A stretch of DNA of 9,085 nt from an uncultured archaeon (GCA_964586355.1 CAZPGO010000027.1:1-9085); one strand, 5' to 3'. Positions 1 to 9,085 are shown, counted from the first letter of the stretch. Notes: generated from the letters alone by a model not told the origin. Numbers and translations: made by a program.

Positions 1-74
<74 letters not shown>

Positions 75-140: not shown

Positions 141-734
141 CTACCCTTTCAATAACTTTTCTTTTAGATCTTTATATTTGAATTCTTCTTTTAACATCTC
201 ATAATAACATTCATCAATAAATTTATTATTTAAAAAAAGATGCTTTCTATAAAGACCTTGCCTAACAAAACCAAGCTTCTCTAAATGTTTAAAACTTCTT
301 GGGTTAAATGAAAATACTTTTGAATAAATTTTTCTTAGTTTTAGTTTGTCAAAAGCAAATTTGTACATCTCAATTTTTGCTTCATGAATTAATCCAGATC
401 CCCAAAAAGGTTTTCCAATCCAAGATCCACTTTCACAGTTTTTGTTTTTTAGATCTATTTTCGTTAATGATACATTACCAATTACTTCTTTTAATTCTTT
501 GTGATAAATACCAAAATCTAAAGTAAATAATAATCTTTTTTTATTAGCTTTTGAGATCTTTATAAATTTATAACCGTCTTCTAAGGAATATGGATAAGGT
601 ATATTCATAGTATTATCAGAAATTGCTTTTTCTTGAAGATATTTAGTAATTGAAACTGCGTCTGATTTTTTTAATGGTCTTAAGATTAAATGTTTTGTTT
701 CTATTTTTATATTATTATAATTTATGTTACCCAT
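141..734 (-). CDS. GNAT family N-acetyltransferase, RimJ/RimL-like (Acetyltransf_3 type)
   Basis: 197-aa ORF with an ATG start. The N-terminal 'TKHLILRPLKKSDAVSITKYL' is the typical RimJ/RimL opening. The core 'GNVSL...SGSWIGKPFWGSGLIHEAKIEMYKFAFDKLKLRKIYSKVFSFNPRSFKHLEKLGFVRQG' matches GNAT motif A and the acetyl-CoA binding region. Confidence 0.85.
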   Translation of the reverse strand: MGNINYNNIKIETKHLILRPLKKSDAVSITKYLQEKAISDNTMNIPYPYSLEDGYKFIKISKANKKRLLFTLDFGIYHKELKEVIGNVSLTKIDLKNKNCESGSWIGKPFWGSGLIHEAKIEMYKFAFDKLKLRKIYSKVFSFNPRSFKHLEKLGFVRQGLYRKHLFLNNKFIDECYYEMLKEEFKYKDLKEKLLKG

Positions 735-769
735 ATTAAAAATAAGAAAAAAATATATTAAAAACAGAT

Positions 770-1018
770 CTATTTTCTTTTAAAAAAGGATTTGGTCATT
801 ACACACACCCATTTTAAATGTAATAAAAAATGAATTAGTCCAAAAACAATAAAACCAAAACCAGAAAGAACATGTGATTTTAACCAAAAGATCTTGTTTG
901 TTCCAAGAATCATAAACTGACCAGAACTAAATACCAAAATAATCCCTGAAATTGAAACAATAATAAAACAGATCAATAACAAAAGGTCTATTATATAATT
1001 TATTTTTATTTTATTCAT
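770..1018 (-). CDS. Small membrane protein, DUF4405-like (two TM helices, His-rich second helix)
   Basis: 82-aa ORF with an ATG start. It has two hydrophobic helices (IIDLLLLICFIIVSISGIILVF and VLSGFGFIVFGLIHFLLHLKWV). The 'W..H...G......IH..LH..W' pattern recalls DUF4405. Its stop is followed on the minus strand by ATCTGTTTTT. Its first 62 nt lie inside a 64-bp direct repeat. Confidence 0.65.
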   Translation of the reverse strand: MNKIKINYIIDLLLLICFIIVSISGIILVFSSGQFMILGTNKIFWLKSHVLSGFGFIVFGLIHFLLHLKWVCVMTKSFFKRK

Positions 1019-1020
1019 TT
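957..1020. repeat. Direct repeat copy A (64 bp), pairs with 2403..2466
   Basis: acaataataaaacagatcaataacaaaaggtctattatataatttatttttattttattcattt matches 2403..2466 at 62 of 64 positions. The offset is exactly 1446 bp. The mismatches are at 976 and 986. It covers the start codon and first 20 codons of the membrane-protein gene, plus 2 nt upstream. Confidence 0.95.
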
Positions 1021-1043
1021 TTATCGCTTATTTAAAATTAAAA

Positions 1044-2108
1044 TTAATATTTATTTAAAATTTTCTCTAAATATTCTAAAAATACTTTAGTATCTAAAAA
1101 ATAATTAGGATATGCTTTTTTAAGATCGTGCAGATTGTCTGCACTAACTAATACAACATCATATTGGTTTCTATTATATATTCTTTTTTCGGCATTAGAA
1201 TAAGCTTGAATTGCTTCTTTTTCTTGTTTTTTTGTAAATGCAGAAATATTTAGTCTTTCAAGAACAGTATCTAGTTCCAAAAGATAAAAGTGTATGTTTT
1301 TTTTCTTTTTAAAATCATCAAAGTATTTAATTGACTGCATCCACTGTTTCATTTTTTGCCTTACTTGTAATTCTTTTTCCTTTTCTTTAATTTGTAAATA
1401 AAGTTCTTTTTCATTTTGAGGTGTTTGAGAAACAATAGGAAAGTGTTCCATTCTTGCAAATGCTGAGCTTACTAATTTAAAGAATATTTTCCATTTTTCT
1501 TCTCCTTGATTAGATTTTATTGCTTGTTTTGTAAAAAAATCAACGGTTTCTACTGCTGTTGCCCAAGTGTGCTGTAATTTAGATCTTATCTGCACTTCTA
1601 TTAATAATCCATTATATTTTTTTCCTTTATCACTTTTATATTTATACACTAAATGTATACTCCTATACCCATCTAACTTAGGACTTGCAATATAGTCTTT
1701 TACATTTACTTTTTTGTGTTTAAGGTCTCCATTACGGTAATATTTATCATATAACTCTCTTACTTGCTTTATATTTGATACTATTACTCTACAACCCGCA
1801 ATATCTTGCATCTGCGTTAATTTCATTGTTGGATTGTTATCATTATATTTCCTTTTTAATTTTTTAAGAATTGATGAGACTCTCTTTAATCTCTGTGCAG
1901 ATAGTGCATTTGTATCTACTTTTTCAGAAACATTTTTTAATCTTTTTTTAAAAACTTGCAAAGGAAAACTGTGTTTTGCTTTCCAACTACTCACAATCTC
2001 TAAGGCATTATTTATTTCTGCAGCAGAGTGTGATTTATCATCAGATAGAATTATAGCAGCATTGTTTATCTTTGATTTAGACAGTTCTGTAATCTCTAGC
2101 TGTGCCAT
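1044..2108 (-). CDS. CapRel-like fused toxSAS (RelA/SpoT-domain pyrophosphokinase with C-terminal regulatory/antitoxin-like domain)
   Basis: RelA/SpoT synthetase core: 'LTQMQDIAGCRVIV', 'DYIASPKLDGYRSIHLVYKY', 'LLIEVQIRSKLQHTWATAVETVDFF'. The N-terminal 'ALEIVSSWKAKHSFPLQVF...ALSAQRLKRVSSILKKLKR' and the C-terminal 'VVLVSADNLHDLKKAYPNYFLDTKVFLEYL' match my recollection of the single-chain CapRel/toxSAS family. The tracked ORF extends to 2153 but begins there with GTG. I place the start at the ATG at 2108..2106 (MAQLEITEL...), which lies 26-27 nt downstream of a TTTAAAAT box. Confidence 0.8.
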   Translation of the reverse strand: MAQLEITELSKSKINNAAIILSDDKSHSAAEINNALEIVSSWKAKHSFPLQVFKKRLKNVSEKVDTNALSAQRLKRVSSILKKLKRKYNDNNPTMKLTQMQDIAGCRVIVSNIKQVRELYDKYYRNGDLKHKKVNVKDYIASPKLDGYRSIHLVYKYKSDKGKKYNGLLIEVQIRSKLQHTWATAVETVDFFTKQAIKSNQGEEKWKIFFKLVSSAFARMEHFPIVSQTPQNEKELYLQIKEKEKELQVRQKMKQWMQSIKYFDDFKKKKNIHFYLLELDTVLERLNISAFTKKQEKEAIQAYSNAEKRIYNRNQYDVVLVSADNLHDLKKAYPNYFLDTKVFLEYLEKILNKY

Positions 2109-2130
2109 AATATTATATTGGAGCAAAACT

Positions 2131-2138
2131 ATTTTAAA
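2131..2138 (-). promoter_or_regulatory. Candidate TATA box giving a leaderless CapRel-like mRNA
   Basis: The minus strand reads CTTTAAAATAG, with the box centre about 26-27 nt upstream of the ATG at 2108. A second box, AGAAATTATAAAAAA, lies at 2156..2170. Low specificity in AT-rich DNA. Confidence 0.3.
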
Positions 2139-2178
2139 GACAGCATATTGCACGGTTTTTTATAATTTCTAGTATCAC

Positions 2179-2352
2179 TTTGCGCGGAAAAAATCTAAAC
2201 ATAAATTCATCTGTAAAACCTTTATTTAATTAGGTTTAAAGCAAATATTTATGTTTTAATTAATATTGCTTTAAAAAAATAGGTCGTTTTGCGCGGTAAC
2301 CACAAAAATAAAAGGTTAATTTGCGCGGAAGGATTTAACAACCTAAAAATAA
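2179..2352 (+). repeat. Three same-orientation copies of a GC-cored intergenic element (core TTTGCGCGG at 2179, 2288, 2320)
   Basis: Exact 9-mer TTTGCGCGG at 2179..2187, 2288..2296 and 2320..2328. Each copy is followed within 10-25 nt by an A-rich tail: CTAAACATAAAT, ACAAAAATAAAAG and CTAAAAATAAAG. A fourth, diverged copy is at 3186..3220. Confidence 0.7.
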
Positions 2353-2371
2353 AGATCATTCTAATTTTATT

Positions 2372-2464
2372 TTACCAAAAAAACTTGTTTTTATTGGATT
2401 TTACAATAATAAAACAGATCAGTAACAAAAGATCTATTATATAATTTATTTTTATTTTATTCAT
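2372..2464 (-). pseudogene. Duplicated 5' fragment of the DUF4405-like gene (30 codons)
   Basis: The minus-strand translation is MNKIKINYIIDLLLLICFIIV-KSNKNKFFW*. The first 21 residues are identical to the start of the 770..1018 protein; the sequence then diverges to a stop. Its ATG overlaps the RelE-like stop as ATGA and is preceded by AAGGACAATAA. Confidence 0.6.
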
Positions 2465-2466
2465 TT
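2403..2466. repeat. Direct repeat copy B (64 bp), pairs with 957..1020
   Basis: acaataataaaacagatcagtaacaaaagatctattatataatttatttttattttattcattt. It is 62/64 identical to copy A. Similarity ends abruptly on both sides. Confidence 0.95.
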
Positions 2467-2856
2467 ATTGTCCTTTTTTTTAAAATCACTACTATTTTTT
2501 TCAATAGTTTTTATTTTTTCATAAAATATTTTTTGTTTACTAGATTTAACCAAACTATTAAATCTATTTATATTTTCAAAATCATAATTAGATATTAAAT
2601 TATAAACATTTTTTCTATGACAAATTTTTATAATTATAATCTTTTTTTCTTTCTCTTTAATTAAATAAATAATTCTATAATCTCCAATATGTAAAGATCT
2701 TATATTTTTTAAAATATTACTCAATGGTTTACCTAATTCAATATTACTATCTAGTTCTTTTAATTTTTTTAATATTTGTAAAATTATTGAGTGATCTAAT
2801 TTATATAATTCTTTCTTTGCAGAATAAACATAGAATCTTTCATAAATCATTTTCAT
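2461..2856 (-). CDS. relE: RelE/ParE-family type II toxin with a roughly 50-aa Lys/Asn-rich C-terminal extension
   Basis: 'KKELYKLDHSIILQILKKLKEL......GKPLSNILKNIRSLHIGDYRIIYLIKEKEKKIIIIKICHRKNVY' follows the RelE/ParE pattern (G.pL.g.l.g..s.riGdYRiiY.i......i.i..i.hRk.vY). The tracked ORF begins with TTG at 2865. ATG codons at 2856 and 2850 are more plausible starts, and either overlaps the antitoxin stop (2840) by 11-17 nt. Confidence 0.8.
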   Translation of the reverse strand: MKMIYERFYVYSAKKELYKLDHSIILQILKKLKELDSNIELGKPLSNILKNIRSLHIGDYRIIYLIKEKEKKIIIIKICHRKNVYNLISNYDFENINRFNSLVKSSKQKIFYEKIKTIEKNSSDFKKKDNK

Positions 2857-3073
2857 CAATACCAAGCTCTTTAAGTATTTCTGATTCTTTTATTAGGTCT
2901 CCTTTTTTATAGGCAATCTCAGCATCTTCTGATAATTTAATAATTTCTAACATTTCTAAACAATCTATTTCTTTTTGAATAGATTTTCTAGCAACTTCAC
3001 TCCATCTAATTTCTGGATATTTTTTCATATTCTGATACATTTTTTGAGGAATTGATAAAGTTATATTTGGCAT
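2840..3073 (-). CDS. Putative antitoxin of the RelE-like toxin
   Basis: 77-aa ORF with an ATG start, immediately upstream of and overlapping the toxin gene. This is the classic antitoxin-first type II arrangement. The N-terminal 'ITLSIPQKMYQNMKKYPEIRWSEVARKSIQKEI' resembles small archaeal DNA-binding antitoxins. The C-terminus is acidic (EILKELGIDENDL). Confidence 0.7.
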   Translation of the reverse strand: MPNITLSIPQKMYQNMKKYPEIRWSEVARKSIQKEIDCLEMLEIIKLSEDAEIAYKKGDLIKESEILKELGIDENDL

Positions 3074-3143
3074 AATATATCACATAAATATTAAAATACA
3101 AAATATTTTTAAAATATGTGTTTACACAGGTTTTTCGGTATTA

Positions 3144-3168
3144 ACTGCTCTTTATTCAGCGGTTTTTT
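3144..3168 (+). other. Orphan hairpin plus U-tract (terminator-like or small RNA 3' end)
   Basis: ACTGCT (3144..3149) pairs with AGCGGT (3158..3163), forming 6 bp including one G:U. The loop is 8 nt (CTTTATTC) and the stem is followed by TTTTT. There is no plus-strand ORF upstream. It sits in a relatively GC-rich patch of the 3074..3328 spacer. Confidence 0.25.
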
Positions 3169-3185
3169 ATAAATTGAAGCATAAA

Positions 3186-3220
3186 TTTGCGCAAGGGATT
3201 TTAGATCTAAAAACAAAGGG
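3186..3220 (+). repeat. Fourth, diverged copy of the GC-cored element (TTTGCGCAAGG...)
   Basis: AATTTGCGCAAGGGATTTTAGATCTAAAAACAAAG aligns with AATTTGCGCGGAAGGATTTAACAACCTAAAAATAAAG at 2318..2354. It contains the perfect 8-bp palindrome TTGCGCAA. It lies in the divergent promoter spacer between the antitoxin gene and the 3329 ORF. Confidence 0.5.
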
Positions 3221-3328
3221 ATAAAATTTATTTTCTTTTTAACATATTAAAAACACCTAAAAAAACACAGATCTACTAAAATTAAAAACATTTAAAAAAA
3301 CTATAGATTAAAGATATAATAGAAAAAT

Positions 3329-3724
3329 ATGAATATATTAATAATCTCTCAAAAAGATTTTTTTAAAGAATTACCAATAATAAGATTTAATATAAAAAAC
3401 CACACAACTTTTTTACAAACAATGGAACTTGGTAAAACTTATAACTATATTAATAAAAACAAACTTTTCTTAGATAAAGATATAGATCTAATAAAACAAG
3501 TTGATGCTTTATTAGTATGTAATTTCAAAAAAGGAAAAGAAGAGAATCATGTTAGTACATATTGCTTAATACTTATGGCAATTGCTCATTCTTATGAAAA
3601 AAAGATCTATTTACTTTATAATCTTCCAAAGAAAAACTTTAAAGAAGAATTAGAATCACTTGAACCAATTTGTCTTCTTGGAGATATTAAGAATTTAAAA
3701 CAAACAATTAGTGCTAAATTGTAA
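3329..3724 (+). CDS. Nucleoside 2-deoxyribosyltransferase-like protein (function uncertain)
   Basis: 131-aa ORF with an ATG start, followed by TAA plus T6. 'IKQVDALLVCNFKKGKEENHVSTYCLILMAIAHSYEKKIYLLYNLPKKNFKEELESLEPICLLGDIKNL' resembles the family pattern I recall for small NDT-like proteins (I..sDallvlN......yiG.st..Em..A....K.Iyll..iP......Ei....P..L.GDl). The usual Gly-containing N-terminal loop is not evident (IIISQKDF). Confidence 0.5.
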   Translation: MNILIISQKDFFKELPIIRFNIKNHTTFLQTMELGKTYNYINKNKLFLDKDIDLIKQVDALLVCNFKKGKEENHVSTYCLILMAIAHSYEKKIYLLYNLPKKNFKEELESLEPICLLGDIKNLKQTISAKL

Positions 3725-3770
3725 TTTTTTAAAAATTATTACACCACAAAAAATAGTTTTGTCTAAAAAA
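3725..3770. terminator. Convergent oligo-T tracts (after the 3329 ORF on plus, after tRNA-His on minus)
   Basis: T6 at 3725..3730 directly follows the TAA of the plus-strand ORF. A6 at 3765..3770 is T6 on the minus strand, directly after the tRNA-His discriminator. Confidence 0.35.
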
Positions 3771-3843
3771 GGTCCGAACCGGGATTCGAACCCGGGTCCT
3801 AAGATCCACAGTCTTAGATGCTAACCACTACACAATTCGGACC
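3771..3843 (-). tRNA. tRNA-His, anticodon GUG, with genomically encoded G-1
   Basis: The reverse complement folds as G(-1) GTCCGAA TT GTGT AGTGGTTA GCAT C TAAGA CTGTGGA TCTTA GGAC CCGGG TTCGAAT CCCGG TTCGGAC C. The anticodon is GTG. The extra 5' G opposite discriminator C73 is the His identity element. No CCA is encoded (next bases are TTTTTT). Confidence 0.92.
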
Positions 3844-3944: not shown

Positions 3945-5516
3945 ATGATCAAAAACAAAGGAGATAATGAAATAATTAGCCAAGCACTAATTATATTAAT
4001 CGTAACAATTACAGTAGGGTTGATTATAACTGTACTACTACCATTTATTGGAGAAATGCAATCAAAAATAAGATATGAAAACTCTGTTAAACAACTAGAT
4101 ATCCTTGATCAAAAAATCTCTGAAATTATAAATGCGCCTATTGGAACCACTAAAGAAATATATCTAAATTTAACTCAACTTCATCTAAGCATAGATAATA
4201 ACAAAATAGAAATATATTCAATAACAAATAACAATTCTTCATTTTTTAAAGACGGATTAAGAATTGATGAAGGAAATAAATATAGCTATAGAGAAGGTCA
4301 AAAAATAGTGGTTGGAATTAGTTATCCTAGTATTAGTTTTGGTGGTTCTATTAGTTTAGAAAATATAAATAATGTTAACTTAATAATTAAAAAAACAAAT
4401 AAAAACTATTTATCCATATCTCAAGAAAACATTACAAGTTCTCAATGGTATAGTTCTTCAAGAAACATCTATTCTCAAGATCAAGGAAACTATGAATTTA
4501 GAAAATTATTATTAATTAATTATTCTAAGGTTGAAGGAGATTTAAAAAATTTTCCAGTATTAATACACCTAGAAGATGAAGATCTAAAAAATTATGCAAA
4601 AAACGATGGATCAGACATAATGTTTACATTAGGAGATGGAGTAACTAAACTTAATAGAGAAATAGAAAGCTTTTTTCAAACAAAATATTTTTATAAAAAA
4701 ATAATAATAGATTCTTCAAAAGTAGAAGAAGATCTTATAGATTTTAAAATGCTATTTTCAACAAGTGATGAAGATCTAATAGAATATTCAAGAAATGATG
4801 GTAAAGATATTTATTTTACTCTTTTAGATAAAGAAACAAAAATTGATCATGAGATAGAATATTTTAATAAAGAAAATGGAAAATTAATTACATGGATAAA
4901 AATACCATTCATTTCCAAAACTAACAACACAGAAATATATATGTTTTTTGGAGATCAAATATACATTAATACAGAAAATATTTGGAATGAAAATTATTTG
5001 TTAGTACAACATCTTAACGACACTCCAAGTAATGGATTAGTTAATGGATTTATTGATTCTTCTATATATTCTAATCATGGAACAGCTACTGGTTTTTATA
5101 ATAATGAATATTCAAATACTGATTATAATGGAGTTATTGATGGAGCAATAATTTTAGATGTTAATAACAATTATATTAATTTAAATAACACCATTAATCT
5201 AAAAAAATCAGACAAATTTGTAATAAGCGGTTGGATTCAAAGAAAAGAAAGTGATCTTGAAACCTATGATGAACTATCCGAAAACATAATTACTCAAAAA
5301 GGATGGGGATCTTGGGCAATTGTTACAGATGATTCAAATATTTCTTTTGTTTTTGATGATGATGTTAAAAGATGTGAAACAGAAATAAATACAAACGAAT
5401 TTGTTAATTTTGTTTTTGTTAATGATGTTGATGATGATGTTGGGTATGGTAGTAATCGATTATTATTGTATATTAATGGAGAACTGGTTAATAATTGTCC
5501 AACAATTGATGAATAA
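3945..5516 (+). CDS. Membrane-anchored or pilin-like surface protein: N-terminal TM/class-III-like signal, 1.5 DUF2341 repeats, C-terminally truncated LamG (Laminin_G_3) domain
   Basis: 523 aa. N-terminus: 'MIKNKG DNEIISQALIILIVTITVGLIITVLLPFI'. DUF2341 signatures: 'YEFRKLLLINYSKVEGDLKNFPVLIHL...NDGSDIMF...LNREIESF' and 'YFYKKIIIDSSKVEEDLIDFKMLF...NDGKDIYF...IDHEIEYF...LITWIKIPFISKTNNTEIYMFFGD'. LamG start: 'WNENYLLVQHLND...DSSIYSNHGTA', then 'FVISGWIQ' and 'NRLLLYINGELVNN'. A stop follows immediately. Confidence 0.85.
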   Translation: MIKNKGDNEIISQALIILIVTITVGLIITVLLPFIGEMQSKIRYENSVKQLDILDQKISEIINAPIGTTKEIYLNLTQLHLSIDNNKIEIYSITNNNSSFFKDGLRIDEGNKYSYREGQKIVVGISYPSISFGGSISLENINNVNLIIKKTNKNYLSISQENITSSQWYSSSRNIYSQDQGNYEFRKLLLINYSKVEGDLKNFPVLIHLEDEDLKNYAKNDGSDIMFTLGDGVTKLNREIESFFQTKYFYKKIIIDSSKVEEDLIDFKMLFSTSDEDLIEYSRNDGKDIYFTLLDKETKIDHEIEYFNKENGKLITWIKIPFISKTNNTEIYMFFGDQIYINTENIWNENYLLVQHLNDTPSNGLVNGFIDSSIYSNHGTATGFYNNEYSNTDYNGVIDGAIILDVNNNYINLNNTINLKKSDKFVISGWIQRKESDLETYDELSENIITQKGWGSWAIVTDDSNISFVFDDDVKRCETEINTNEFVNFVFVNDVDDDVGYGSNRLLLYINGELVNNCPTIDE

Positions 5517-5535
5517 AAAATAAGGGTTTATATTT

Positions 5536-7071
5536 ATGTTAAAAAAAATTATTTTATTTTGTTTAATTTTGTTAATATTACCAAATACATTTGCAGAAAT
5601 AACAATAGAAGTTTTACCAGCACCTGTTATTAGTGCAGAGCTTGTTGAAGGAGGAGATCTATCTCCAAATACCACTTATTATTTTGCTGCATTTGCAGGA
5701 ATTATATCAAGTGGAGCATATGGGGGTAATTCAATTAGCCCTGCAAGTAATATGGTTACTATAACCACTACTGAAACACATAAATCAATTAAAATAATTT
5801 GGGGAGTTTTAGAAAGTCCAACAACACACACATTTATTAGATGGGATACAGATTCATTACAAGACGAAAATGGAGAATACATTCCACAAGAATCCAGAAA
5901 ATTTACTGCTCTTGGATGGTCTGGAAATTCAGGAACAGAAGTTACCTTAACTTCTCTTTCTGAACAAAGTGTGAGTTATGCTTTATTAACACATCCAGAA
6001 CTATCTATTTTACCAGAATATTTAGATTCTAGAATAAATAGAAAAAAAGGTATTTGTAAACTTACAATTACAGGAACAGAAACCTATGAAAATCTCATTA
6101 ACACAATAAGAAATAGTGATCATAATGATATGTTTATAATAAATAATAATTCATTTACTACTCTTTGTTCAATCTATGGAACAGGGTCACTAACCTTTGA
6201 AAATAAAAATATTAAATTTCTTTATACTAAAAATTTAAATCCAAACATAAACTTTAATAATTCTTTAATATTTTCAGAAAACAAAAGTCAAAGTGGTGGA
6301 AACTATGGAAATTTTTATAATTGTAGTATTAGAATAAATAATAATTATCAATACAGTTTTAAAAATGATTATTCCAACATAAAAATTAGTGGAGATCGAG
6401 AACTTCTATTGCACAATGGCATTAATAGTGATTTAGATCTTTCTTACGATCTAATAAAATATTATAGCACCGAAAAAATAAGAGAATTAACAAATATGAC
6501 CTACAGAAACAAGTCTGTATATCTATATCGATTTAGTTCCATAAAAGACACAAATACAGACATTTATAACAACTATTTTGAGAACTGTGGCACTCGTGAT
6601 CTATTACTTTATGCATCAAGTTCAGGTTATCTTTCTGAAGGTGTTACAGATGACTCAAATTATAATATTTATAATAGTTATAGTAATAGAGAAAGTAAAC
6701 TGCCATTAGTAAGCTATGTAGATCAATCTAGTTGGACAGGAGTGAGCAGAGTAAAAGCAAAATTATTTTACACTCAATATTTTAATATTACAGATAAATT
6801 TGGAAATCCAATAGATCAAGCAAAAATAATTATTAAAGATTCTAATAATACTACAATTTCTGAAATTTATACAGATATTAATGGATCTGTAGACTATAAC
6901 CTTATGACACATTTAATAGAATATGATGAAACAAATGCTAATGGATTAAGATCTAAATATCATTACCAAGGACCATTTACAATAACAGTTTCCAAATATG
7001 GATATTACTCATATAGATCTAAACAAGAAATAATTTCTGAAAAAAATCAAAAAATTAGTTTACAAAGTTAA
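5536..7071 (+). CDS. Secreted surface protein module: Sec signal peptide, Ig/FN3-like N-domain, Asn-rich beta-helix-like middle, C-terminal prealbumin/CarboxypepD_reg-like domain
   Basis: 511 aa. Signal peptide 'MLKKIILFCLILLILPNTFA|EITIE'. The upstream sequence has AAGGG about 10 nt before the ATG. The C-terminal 'FNITDKFGNPIDQAKIIIKDSNNTTISEIYTDINGSVDY...GPFTITVSKYGYYSY' fits the carboxypeptidase-regulatory-like fold pattern. It is a clear paralogue of the N-terminal roughly 520 aa of the next gene. Confidence 0.85.
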   Translation: MLKKIILFCLILLILPNTFAEITIEVLPAPVISAELVEGGDLSPNTTYYFAAFAGIISSGAYGGNSISPASNMVTITTTETHKSIKIIWGVLESPTTHTFIRWDTDSLQDENGEYIPQESRKFTALGWSGNSGTEVTLTSLSEQSVSYALLTHPELSILPEYLDSRINRKKGICKLTITGTETYENLINTIRNSDHNDMFIINNNSFTTLCSIYGTGSLTFENKNIKFLYTKNLNPNINFNNSLIFSENKSQSGGNYGNFYNCSIRINNNYQYSFKNDYSNIKISGDRELLLHNGINSDLDLSYDLIKYYSTEKIRELTNMTYRNKSVYLYRFSSIKDTNTDIYNNYFENCGTRDLLLYASSSGYLSEGVTDDSNYNIYNSYSNRESKLPLVSYVDQSSWTGVSRVKAKLFYTQYFNITDKFGNPIDQAKIIIKDSNNTTISEIYTDINGSVDYNLMTHLIEYDETNANGLRSKYHYQGPFTITVSKYGYYSYRSKQEIISEKNQKISLQS

Positions 7072-7082
7072 AAGGATAATAA

Positions 7083-9085
7083 ATGATTAAAAAATATAAT
7101 TTCATAGTTTTAATATTAATATTATTAATAATACCAAACATACATTCAGCAATAAATATAACCATTTTACAAAAACCAACACTTTCTTTAGAACTAGTAG
7201 AAGGCGGATCTTTAACAGAAAATACTAGATATTACTTTAGTGGATATAATCACCTTGGCTCAACACAACACAGTGATTCTGTTAGTCCTGCAGCAGATCA
7301 AGTTTATATAGATACAAACACAACACACAAAAGCATAAAAATAACCTGGGGCGAAATACCTTCTCCAGCAACAGAAATGGCAATTAAATGGGACACAATT
7401 CCTTTAGTTGATGAAAATGGAGAATTTATTCCAGATAGAAAAACATCAAATCTAAAATATTTAACAGCACCATCTGTTGGATTTACAGGAACCGAAACAA
7501 TAATGACTGATGAAATCTTAGTTGGGTCTATTGGTGCCTGGTCACACCTGGAATTATCTGTTCCAATAGAGGAAACAGATCCAAAAATCAATAGAAAAAA
7601 AGGAATTTGTTATATAGAAGTTACAGAGACACACACATATGAGGAATTTGTTACAGCAATTCAAAATTCAGATGCTAATGATTTAGTTTTAATAAATAGA
7701 GATAATATGATTTTACCTTGCTCAATATATGGATCTGGAAAAATAGAATTTAATAAAAAAAATATTACTTTTCTTTATTCTATATCCAAAAATTCAGAAA
7801 TAGAATTTAACAATTCACAAATACATTTTATATCTCCAAAACAAACAATAAACATTAATTTTAAACTAAATGAATCTACAATACTACCAAGCGACACAAG
7901 CATAGCATCAATTGCTTTATCTGGTTATTTTGGAAAAAATAATATTATATATTTTTCTGATTTTGCATTTAATTTACAAACATATACTTCTTTATCTGAT
8001 CTTATTTTGACAAACAACAGAATAAATTTTAGATATCCACAAGATAATTGGTATTTTAATAATTCGATAATAAATAATGGACATATATACCAATCACCAA
8101 CTATAAGCCAGAATAACGCAGATATTTATTATATTAATACAATCTGGAATAATAAAAACACAGCACAAACATATGATCTAATTATAGGAGATACTAGCTA
8201 CTACAAAAACAAATCAGAAGACTTTTATCAAAATGTATATCTAATAAACTCAAATAGCGATAGACCAGATAGACTCCCAATAATAAGATTTGCTGATTTT
8301 GATAATTCTAGTAATCTTATTGATATTAAAGTTTTTGTTTTACAAACATTAAGTTTTCAAATATTAGATCAAAATGGAGATCCTTTAGAAAATGCTACAA
8401 TATCTATTACAGATAATAACAATACTAATTATTTATTAACTACTAACTCACTTGGAGTTATAGATCAAAATACACAAACACATTTAATAAAATATAAATC
8501 CATATTAGAAGGTGGTGGAGATAATAGAACAGAAATAATAGATCTTAATCCTTTTACTATTGTTATAAATAAAGAAGGATATGAAACATATACAACAACA
8601 CAAACAATAAAAGAAAAAGAAGAATTTGTTATTAATTTACCAGAATCTAGTCTAAAAATTGGAGCTGTTCAAAAAGAAGGATTAGATATTAAGGGTTTTT
8701 CAGGAGTTGTTGATGAAATAAGAATAGCAGATAACATAAGATCTTCAAAAACTATAAAAGCAGAATATAATAATCAAGTGAATCCTAGTGAATTTTATAG
8801 TGTTGGATCAAAAGAAACAGCACCAACATCATCTTTATTTGCTTGGGTAAAAATACCTGAACTCTCTTCAACAAAAGACACACCGATCTACATGTATTTT
8901 GGAAACCCACTTGCAAATGAAACTAATGACAAAGAAACATGGGATGATGATTTTGTTATGGTACAACATCTTAATGAATCTCCAAATAATAATGAAATAG
9001 ACGGACATAAAGATTCTACAAAAAATAACAAACACGGAATAGCAAAAGGGTTTGATAATATTTATTCAACAACAAATATTCAAGG
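7083..9085 (+). CDS. Partial (3'-open) mosaic surface protein: paralogous module (signal peptide, Ig/FN3-like, beta-helix-like, prealbumin-like) fused to a LamG C-terminal fragment, a DUF2341 C-terminal half and a new LamG start
   Basis: Not in the supplied ORF track because it has no stop in the window. I translated it codon by codon from the ATG at 7083 (preceded by AAGGATAATAA) to 9085 and found no in-frame stop. It starts 'MIKKYNFIVLILILLIIPNIHS|AINITILQKPTLSLELVEGGSL...'. Later features: 'FQILDQNGDPLENATISITD...FTIVINKEGYETY', then 'SLKIGAVQKEGLDIKGFSGVVDEIRIADNIRSSKTIKAEYNNQ', then 'LFAWVKIPELSSTKDTPIYMYFGNP', then 'WDDDFVMVQHLNESPNN'. Confidence 0.85.
   Translation, partial: MIKKYNFIVLILILLIIPNIHSAINITILQKPTLSLELVEGGSLTENTRYYFSGYNHLGSTQHSDSVSPAADQVYIDTNTTHKSIKITWGEIPSPATEMAIKWDTIPLVDENGEFIPDRKTSNLKYLTAPSVGFTGTETIMTDEILVGSIGAWSHLELSVPIEETDPKINRKKGICYIEVTETHTYEEFVTAIQNSDANDLVLINRDNMILPCSIYGSGKIEFNKKNITFLYSISKNSEIEFNNSQIHFISPKQTININFKLNESTILPSDTSIASIALSGYFGKNNIIYFSDFAFNLQTYTSLSDLILTNNRINFRYPQDNWYFNNSIINNGHIYQSPTISQNNADIYYINTIWNNKNTAQTYDLIIGDTSYYKNKSEDFYQNVYLINSNSDRPDRLPIIRFADFDNSSNLIDIKVFVLQTLSFQILDQNGDPLENATISITDNNNTNYLLTTNSLGVIDQNTQTHLIKYKSILEGGGDNRTEIIDLNPFTIVINKEGYETYTTTQTIKEKEEFVINLPESSLKIGAVQKEGLDIKGFSGVVDEIRIADNIRSSKTIKAEYNNQVNPSEFYSVGSKETAPTSSLFAWVKIPELSSTKDTPIYMYFGNPLANETNDKETWDDDFVMVQHLNESPNNNEIDGHKDSTKNNKHGIAKGFDNIYSTTNIQ

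Follow-up and report, generated by a model that had tools for sequence, protein, structure and literature searches.

The window analysed here is a contig of 9,085 nucleotides (nt) from an uncultured archaeon (GCA_964586355.1 CAZPGO010000027.1:1-9085). From position 3945 to the contig end it carries, on the plus strand, three closely packed genes in three different frames, and these genes contain one LamG domain that is divided over two polypeptides. Gene 1 codes for a pilin-like surface protein that stops before the last third of the domain, and the missing strands are found from 8646 onward in gene 3, joined in frame to the second of two paralogous modules that are predicted to be secreted. 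This three-gene arrangement is old, conserved and under purifying selection, and its origin is very probably the insertion of a cassette of two modules into an ancestral adhesin gene.

Gene 1 (3945..5516, plus strand) encodes a protein of 523 amino acids (aa), as indicated by the list of open reading frames (ORFs), Pfam and its orthologues. Its N-terminus ('NKG/DNEIISQALIILIVTITVGLIITV') can be read as a pilin-like [KR]G motif followed by a hydrophobic segment, and adjacent ORFs also have pilin-like beginnings ('KKG/LAVIFS...'). The N-terminus has no match in NCBIfam, the match of gene 1 to Pfam DUF7289 is weak (E = 0.27), and no prepilin peptidase gene is present within the window. The hydrophobic segment is followed by a stalk, two 'a' units (a1, aa 185-246; a2, aa 249-309) and one 'b' unit (b2, aa 312-342), these three units being located at 4497..4970 by unit hidden Markov models (HMMs), and by the LamG domain without its last third (L1N, 4977..5513; aa 396-517 aligned by the family profile described below). 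Pfam DUF2341 (PF10102) is matched by aa 285-341 with 31.7 bits, above the gathering cutoff of 23.4, and corresponds to a2 plus b2. The last residues before the stop codon are '...NRLLLYINGELVNNCPTIDE', or '...LLLYINGELVNNCPTIDE' in another excerpt of the same C-terminal end, and the orthologues of gene 1 (518-520 aa) stop at the identical point.

Gene 2 (5536..7071, plus strand; 511 aa, predicted secreted module 1, supported by the ORF list, AlphaFold2 and BFVD) begins 19 nt after gene 1 and ends with 'KISLQS' and its own stop codon. Gene 3 begins at 7083, 11 nt after gene 2. In both genes an n-h-c signal pattern can be read ('MLKKIILFCLILLILPNTFA/E', aa 1-20, in gene 2; 'MIKKYNFIVLILILLIIPNIHS/A' in gene 3), and the module part of gene 3 (7083..8645, plus strand) is composed of a predicted signal peptide (aa 1-22) and module 2 (aa 23-521). 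The two genes are paralogous across all of gene 2, with 36% identity over 511 aa (BLASTP, E = 5e-75). Gene 3 then continues without a stop codon across 'FVINLPES/SLKIGAV...DEIRIADNIRSSKTIKAEYNNQVNPSEFYSVG' ('...FYSVG', 8646-8807). The orphan C-terminal part of the first LamG domain (L1C, 8646..8816, plus strand; gene 3 aa 522-578, 'SSLKIGAV...GFSGVVDEIRIADNIRSSKTIKAEYNNQVNPSEFYSVGSKE') was delimited by hmmsearch and is colinear with the uninterrupted homologue P0006. It is followed at 8823..9085 (plus strand) by a further 'b' unit (b3, aa 581-616 according to the unit HMM) and the start of a second LamG domain, where the contig end cuts the gene. Beyond aa 585, gene 3 resembles gene 1 aa 314-393 (41% identity), and only its 'b' part matches DUF2341 (model positions 30-62, 22.3 bits, below the cutoff). 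Orthologues of gene 3 extend to 846-853 aa and have a complete second LamG, which in locus L001 matches positions 2-193 of the family model. The initial annotation of the window had described these gene ends and starts, the stop after 'KISLQS', the read-through and the paralogy of the modules, and all these statements were correct on re-translation and BLASTP comparison.

The same annotation had claimed that gene 1 lacks the final strands of a LamG domain and that these appear at 8646 onward. Since Pfam Laminin_G_3 (PF13385) did not reach the window sequences (the window proteins and the joined domain give no match even at E = 10), a family LamG profile of 193 positions was built from 15 complete LamG domains of relatives, with the split lineage excluded. 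In hmmsearch, gene 1 aa 396-517 align with positions 3-125 of this profile (23.6 bits) and the orphan piece, gene 3 aa ~522-578, aligns with positions ~130-193 (48.8 bits). Neither piece gives a full-length LamG match within one polypeptide, and the two jointly make up one complete domain: when joined in silico, they align with positions 3-193 and score 76.6 bits, about the sum of the parts. The alignment of the joined halves with complete domains runs from end to end, and no strand is duplicated or missing. The profile positions are therefore complementary, as the claim implied. The junction ('NNCPTIDE/SSLKIG') falls in a variable loop that connects the 'lYvdGel' strand to the 'l.vG' strand, L1N stopping in the loop that follows its 'LYINGELV' strand, and the same split register is found in L001, L006, L007, L010 and L008. 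The orphan strands of L008, for instance, retain the LamG motif with 40.1 bits.

For an AT-rich lineage such as this one, the Pfam Laminin_G_3 model is too remote. The orthologue P0003, which is 70% identical, matches the model at positions 3-100 of 151 only, scoring 27.2 bits against a cutoff of 27.6, while the uninterrupted homologue P0006 covers positions 1-151 of 151 (E = 2.8e-35). The expectation that gene 1 would cover only the N-terminal part of the domain, and the orphan piece only its C-terminal part, held for the family profile (positions 3-125 and ~130-193) and, as regards gene 1, for the Pfam match of its orthologue P0003.

The organization of relatives indicates what was interrupted. 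According to the unit HMMs, the family follows the grammar N-(a)n-(b-LamG)m, in which the Pfam DUF2341 model corresponds to the last 'a' and the first 'b' of an array. Giant pilin-like proteins encoded downstream (L001 17080-21561; L005 10749-14210) carry four tandem 'a' units of 63 aa and then four b-LamG units. All LamG units in these giant proteins (at least 4 in each), as well as the 15 domains of the profile, are continuous. Two other readings of the region were rejected on the basis of this grammar. One regarded b3 as a DUF2341 that had lost its N-terminal half, but a lone 'b' behind a LamG is native to the family. The other was a 'Russian-doll' arrangement, in which a DUF2341 would be split around an inserted DUF2341-LamG; the unit HMMs give (a)n followed by (b-LamG)m.

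Homologues of gene 1 exist in four states at one syntenic locus, which has a GNAT acetyltransferase gene upstream in most cases. Downstream, where the contig reaches, an AAA_14/DUF4143 gene comes next, in some cases preceded by a short pilin-like ORF, and then a large pilin-like LamG protein, the giant a4(bL)4, follows. State 0 is a stalk of 165-168 aa only (L016, L017 and L018, e.g. L018 7992-8489). State A is a protein of 517 aa with the order N-a-b-LamG (P0005 in L005; L013), and state B is an uninterrupted protein of 850 aa with the order N-a-a-b-LamG1-b-LamG2 (P0006 in L003/L004; L014). State C is the split three-gene form, present in the window and in L001/L002, L006, L007, L010 and L008. 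Gene 1 and the tail of gene 3, taken in this order, are colinear with P0006, and the corresponding parts in L001 (520 aa plus ~331) add up to 851 aa, compared with 850 in P0006. The uninterrupted version of the gene that had been anticipated in related genomes thus exists, at full length and in the same syntenic position (P0006, L014). It supports the initial proposal that a two-copy cassette of secreted modules lies inside an ancestral DUF2341-LamG-(DUF2341)-LamG gene, converting one gene into three and creating a chimeric third protein. From the sequences compared, the C-terminal end of the pilin-like protein appears to be a hot spot for gain and loss of adhesin units.

Close strains differ precisely in this region. 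In both flanks, the nucleotide sequence of L005 (state A) matches those of L001 and L006 with 90-97% identity, and L005 lacks a block of 4.19 kb (L001 10730-14919) that comprises a2, b2, L1N, both modules and L1C. In place of the block, L005 has 56 bp (8537-8592) that complete one ordinary DUF2341, so that the indel is in frame, lies at repeat-unit boundaries and leaves one DUF2341 intact. The whole block has therefore been gained or lost between close strains, the two LamG halves travelling together. At every locus seen, both halves are either jointly present, split or fused, or jointly absent (L005, L013, L016-L018). This polymorphism fits the suggestion, made in the initial annotation, that the arrangement may serve to diversify attachment proteins.

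The split layout is found in at least 7 independent assemblies (window, L001/L002, L006, L007, L010, L008, and further ENA/Logan contigs), which were obtained from JGI, NCBI, ENA and Logan and represent different samples and sequencing projects. The intergenic spacers are nearly constant (19 nt and then 11-14 nt; 16 and 19 nt in L008). The most divergent case is L008, whose modules are ~40% identical to those of the window and whose layout is the same: an upstream ORF ending in '...VRIFINGDLKITCPF' at its stop codon, module 1, and module 2 with the C-terminal strands of LamG fused to it. The module tree places L008 gene 2 with the gene 2 orthologues and L008 gene 3 with the gene 3 orthologues; therefore, both the duplication and the split predate the divergence of L008. 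No homologue of gene 1 was found that ends at the same point without a downstream orphan piece, since all of them (window, L001/L002, L006, L007, L010, L008) carry the two modules and the orphan strands. With respect to selection, ratios of nonsynonymous to synonymous substitution (dN/dS) were calculated for five loci by the Nei-Gojobori method, dS being similar between segments. Values were 0.28 for L1N, 0.37 for L1C, 0.31 for the module of gene 2 and 0.28 for that of gene 3, within an overall range of 0.14-0.41. The recurrence of the layout together with these ratios indicates that the split is neither an assembly artefact nor a decaying pseudogene.

The AlphaFold2 model of gene 2 is confident (predicted local distance difference test, pLDDT, 86.7). 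It consists of a signal helix (aa 1-20), an N-terminal beta-sandwich (~22-140), a region of short strands typical of beta-helices (~200-400) and a transthyretin-like sandwich (407-509). A weak Pfam match to CarboxypepD_reg agrees with this C-terminal domain, to which the matches of a fold search in the PDB are confined. In BFVD the matches cover the greater part of gene 2's product and belong to structural proteins of phages (E = 8e-11 to 1e-6), one of them from Synechococcus phage Syn5. An exhaustive profile search with the module recovered 1144 relatives at E <= 1e-3. Of the best-scoring relatives examined, most have 500-650 aa and no signal peptide, and their beginning, 'MA[IV]T[IV]...KP.L.L.L..GG.L..NTTYYF', corresponds to the predicted mature N-terminus of the window modules. 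For instance, the homologue P0023 was detected with E = 1e-20 using a single sequence and 1.5e-168 using the profile. The three genomic contexts of module relatives that were read are all tailed-phage contigs: L009 (relative at 10001-11833), with portal, head protease, tail-fibre connector and amidase genes; L020 (10001-11536), with tape measure and endolysin genes; and L021 (1428-3260), with genes for gp32, a RecA-like protein and DnaB. In L009 and L020 the relatives adjoin tail and lysis genes, and the L009 gene has a guanine plus cytosine (GC) content of 38%, compared with 42-46% in the remaining phage contig.

The modules had no match in PHROGs and no Pfam family beyond the weak C-terminal transthyretin-like domain. 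Module relatives were found neither in the INPHARED phage collection by tblastn nor by the scan of IMG/VR and an initial scan of JGI metagenomes with the module profile, a scan of GTDB genomes gave two marginal partial matches only, and an exact search for gene 2 in the assembly index gave no match. There is no characterised member of the family among the relatives found. As judged from sequence and context, the modules are cellular relatives, with predicted signal peptides, of a phage tail-fibre/spike-like family. Their fusion to LamG strands is restricted to the split lineage, the homologues in phage contexts being devoid of LamG parts. In other organisms, Sec-type signal peptides are also seen in relatives that have no LamG fragment (P0036, P0039, P0044, P0050, P0051, P0053, P0062 and others), and cellular capture of a phage-like module protein may have taken place more than once.

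The explanation that best accounts for these observations as a whole, which we consider moderately probable, is insertion followed by reassembly of the domain outside the cell. The ancestor would have been a single pilin-like adhesin gene with an N-terminal anchor, two 'a' units, b-LamG1 and b-LamG2. The break would have occurred in a LamG1 surface loop that separates the 'lYvdGel' strand from the 'l.iG / iDEvRI' strands, through the entry of ~3.1 kb of DNA containing two tandem paralogous phage-tail-fibre/spike-like genes that had acquired Sec signal peptides. The first inserted gene would have retained its stop, and the second, lacking one, would have been joined, with the reading frame kept, to the final ~57 codons of LamG1 and to all that lies downstream, the outcome being a compact three-gene operon with spacers of 19 and 11 nt. 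All three proteins would then be exported, protein 1 by means of its pilin-like signal and proteins 2 and 3 by means of their Sec signals. After export, protein 3 would insert its 57 orphan residues into the incomplete beta-sandwich of protein 1, and the LamG1 rebuilt in this way would mount the phage-like module and the distal LamG2 non-covalently on the pilin-like stalk, protein 2 being a free or co-oligomerising paralogue. In this scheme the signal peptides and the expression as an operon are predictions, and we infer the export, the reassembly and the role in adhesion.

Non-covalent reassembly of the LamG halves, which the initial annotation had also mentioned, is in itself a tentative proposal with slightly less than an even chance of being correct. 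It is suggested indirectly by the co-occurrence of the halves, the selection acting on them and the terminal tag of L008. The strongest indirect argument in its favour appears to be that of L008, in which gene 3 ends directly behind the orphan strands, without b-LamG2, so that these strands cannot act as a linker. In addition, judging from the LamG fold, a sandwich without its long central 'iDEvRI' strand should not be stable alone.

Several observations weigh against insertion followed by reassembly. All gene 1 proteins of the split lineage possess two cysteines close to where the truncated LamG ends (KRC 5355-5363 and NNC 5493-5501 in the window; 'LEC...TCPF' in L008 1-234). This pair is absent from complete LamG units and could be a disulfide staple making the truncated domain stable on its own. 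The orphan strands have no counterpart of the family's conserved tryptophan, reading 'TIKAEY' or 'YIKTEY' and not 'sWIxTEY', and the packing must therefore have changed. The residue of 'sWIxTEYNNQ' is replaced by threonine or tyrosine in the orphan strands of the split lineage (window 8646-8816; C-terminus of L008 1827-3530), which seems to be a derived change common to the split lineages. The dN/dS ratios of the halves are not below those of the adjacent segments. The AlphaFold2 model of the joined halves is a ConA-like jelly roll whose best Foldseek matches are clostridial neurotoxin Hc N-domains (E = 4e-7), but it is a weak model (mean pLDDT 52, predicted template modelling score 0.58), although its orphan strands are predicted comparatively well (pLDDT 75-78). 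In similarity, the orphan piece reaches 41.5% with LamG1 and 52% with LamG2 of P0006; since it is no closer to LamG1, there is room for an in-register mosaic of two units, and it is by colinearity and register that the piece is assigned here to LamG1, as part of the same ancestral domain. Finally, no significant direct, inverted or tandem repeats or target-site duplications were detected at the cassette ends, and the cassette itself contains no integrase, transposase or other mobile-element gene.

The cysteine pair, the lost tryptophan, the unexceptional dN/dS of the halves and the weak joined model would all be accommodated if the gene had been split without later reassembly. The three proteins would then act separately, protein 1 with a remodelled partial LamG that is held by a disulfide staple and protein 3 as a phage-like binder that is soluble or attached in some other manner, the orphan strands being a linker or being packed on its own domains. 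We consider this unlikely, although it deserves more credit than the remaining alternatives. It does not readily explain why the register of the halves has persisted, along with purifying selection on them, from a time before L008 and the window diverged, nor why they are always gained or lost jointly; the orphan strands of L008 form a terminal tag behind which no further domain remains to be linked, and a beta-sandwich deprived of its central 'iDEvRI' strand is not expected to be stable. A history in which the split form is ancestral and the 850-aa genes arose by deletion of the cassette, or in which halves of different LamG units were brought together with capture of the cassette, is improbable. 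The slightly greater similarity of the orphan piece to the second LamG of P0006 would fit a mosaic, and the 4.19-kb polymorphism demonstrates that large in-frame deletions at unit boundaries do occur. However, that deletion takes out whole units in L005 and leaves no fused halves, the production of a perfect LamG by deletion would require two exact breakpoints, all other LamG units of the family are continuous, and the module homologues in phage contexts have no LamG parts.

It is even less credible, to the point of being very improbable, that the split is an artefact or a dead gene, in the sense of a misassembly, false stops, a recent pseudogene or a single polypeptide produced by recoding. 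The window is a short metagenomic contig and Pfam detects no LamG in its gene 1, which might raise this suspicion. Assembly error as the source of the split is nevertheless excluded by the recurrence of identical gene boundaries and near-constant spacers in the independent assemblies mentioned above, and the low dN/dS throughout speaks against decay. Recoding or readthrough into one polypeptide was rejected on account of the three frames and of the ATG and hydrophobic signal sequence that each module has for itself, and no Rfam element or intron-like RNA was found in the region.

The GC content of the window ranges from 18 to 33%. In NCBI, relatives of gene 1 carry the names 'archaeon' or 'Candidatus Pacearchaeota archaeon'. 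One relative is located on a contig of 0.98 Mb, and one sample was an anaerobic digester (JASEYN000000000, a whole metagenome assembly and not a metagenome-assembled genome). The organism is likely a DPANN-type archaeon, and the symbiont-like way of life proposed in the initial annotation is plausible in view of the pilin-like N-termini, the names of the relatives and the 0.98-Mb contig. Upstream of the adhesin operon, the window contains a tRNA-Thr(GGT) gene (1..74, minus strand) and genes for a GNAT acetyltransferase (141-734), a DUF4405 membrane protein (770-1018), a RelA/SpoT-domain protein (1044-2153) and a ParE-type toxin with an overlapping small upstream ORF (2461-3073). A tRNA-His(GTG) gene (3770..3843, minus strand; ARAGORN and Rfam) lies ~100 nt upstream of gene 1. 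The region flanked by the two tRNA genes is variable, its gene content (141-3724) differing among related loci, and in L001 an integrase gene of phage type and the gene for the HsdM methylase of a type I restriction-modification system are found nearby. Three ORFs of 67-95 aa on the minus strand (5463-5675, 5679-5882 and 7304-7591) overlap genes 1-3 and are most likely chance ORFs.

If the halves do reassemble, they would constitute a naturally evolved extracellular split-protein tag with a ConA-like fold, similar to engineered complementation tags. An episymbiont-type archaeon would then have borrowed phage receptor-binding hardware for its own adhesion machinery. It can be speculated, as a possible but rather doubtful extension, that the system works by split-domain docking, with a 'socket' on the pilin-like stalk and a 57-residue 'plug' on the secreted protein. 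In this manner an ultra-small archaeon would mount domesticated phage receptor-binding proteins, and the 4.2-kb block would be swapped between strains to change host or surface specificity. Even without reassembly, this is a well-documented case of gene fission within a single domain that has been under selection across a deep divergence. The system is small and testable, the fragments having 179 and 57 residues, and it bears on partner recognition in DPANN-type archaea, on the formation of multi-subunit surface structures by gene insertion and on the exchange of adhesin modules between phages and cells.

In the literature, no description was found of an extracellular beta-sandwich cut by inserted genes for secreted proteins with its C-terminal fragment fused to one of them, nor of an archaeal adhesin gene that harbours genes for phage receptor-binding-type proteins. 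Gene fission and strand complementation are known kinds of events. Makarova et al. 2016 (PMC4858521) predict that the DUF2341 proteins encoded in type IV pilus loci of archaea act as tip adhesins. The proteins described here share with them a putative pilin-like N-terminus, the DUF2341 and Laminin_G_3-type units and the pilin-like gene neighbours, and states A and B (P0005 and P0006) are ordinary DUF2341-LamG members of such loci. In the split form, by contrast, one LamG is divided over two polypeptides by two inserted genes, and nothing similar is described in PMC4858521.

Split genes are known from Nanoarchaeota and other archaea (PMC3655853; PMC11237513). As in the present case, one ancestral protein is encoded by separate ORFs in a small-genome archaeon and the products are expected to reassemble. 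However, those cases concern enzymes of the cytoplasm, and the genes for their parts usually lie apart in the genome, whereas here the cut lies inside a single beta-sandwich of a predicted exported protein, is caused by an inserted gene pair, and leaves the C-terminal fragment fused to one of the two genes.

For reassembly outside the cell there are archaeal precedents, since strand donation between exported proteins is established for threads and cannulae (PMC9715654; 10.1101/2024.12.30.630787). As a proposal, the mode of action put forward here resembles donor-strand complementation in chaperone-usher pili, archaeal threads and cannulae, in that a second exported polypeptide completes a beta-sandwich. 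In those systems one strand is donated to an Ig-like fold and identical subunits are polymerised; here the donated part would amount to about one third of a ConA-like domain, modelled as two strands and a helix, and a single donation would connect two proteins of different kinds. With respect to the receptor-binding tail fibres and tailspikes of phages that contain a beta-helix, the modules are alike in their homology to proteins encoded in tail or structural gene clusters of tailed phages (L009, L020 and L021) and in the fold matched in BFVD. They differ in that the cellular copies carry predicted Sec signal peptides and are situated inside an adhesin gene.

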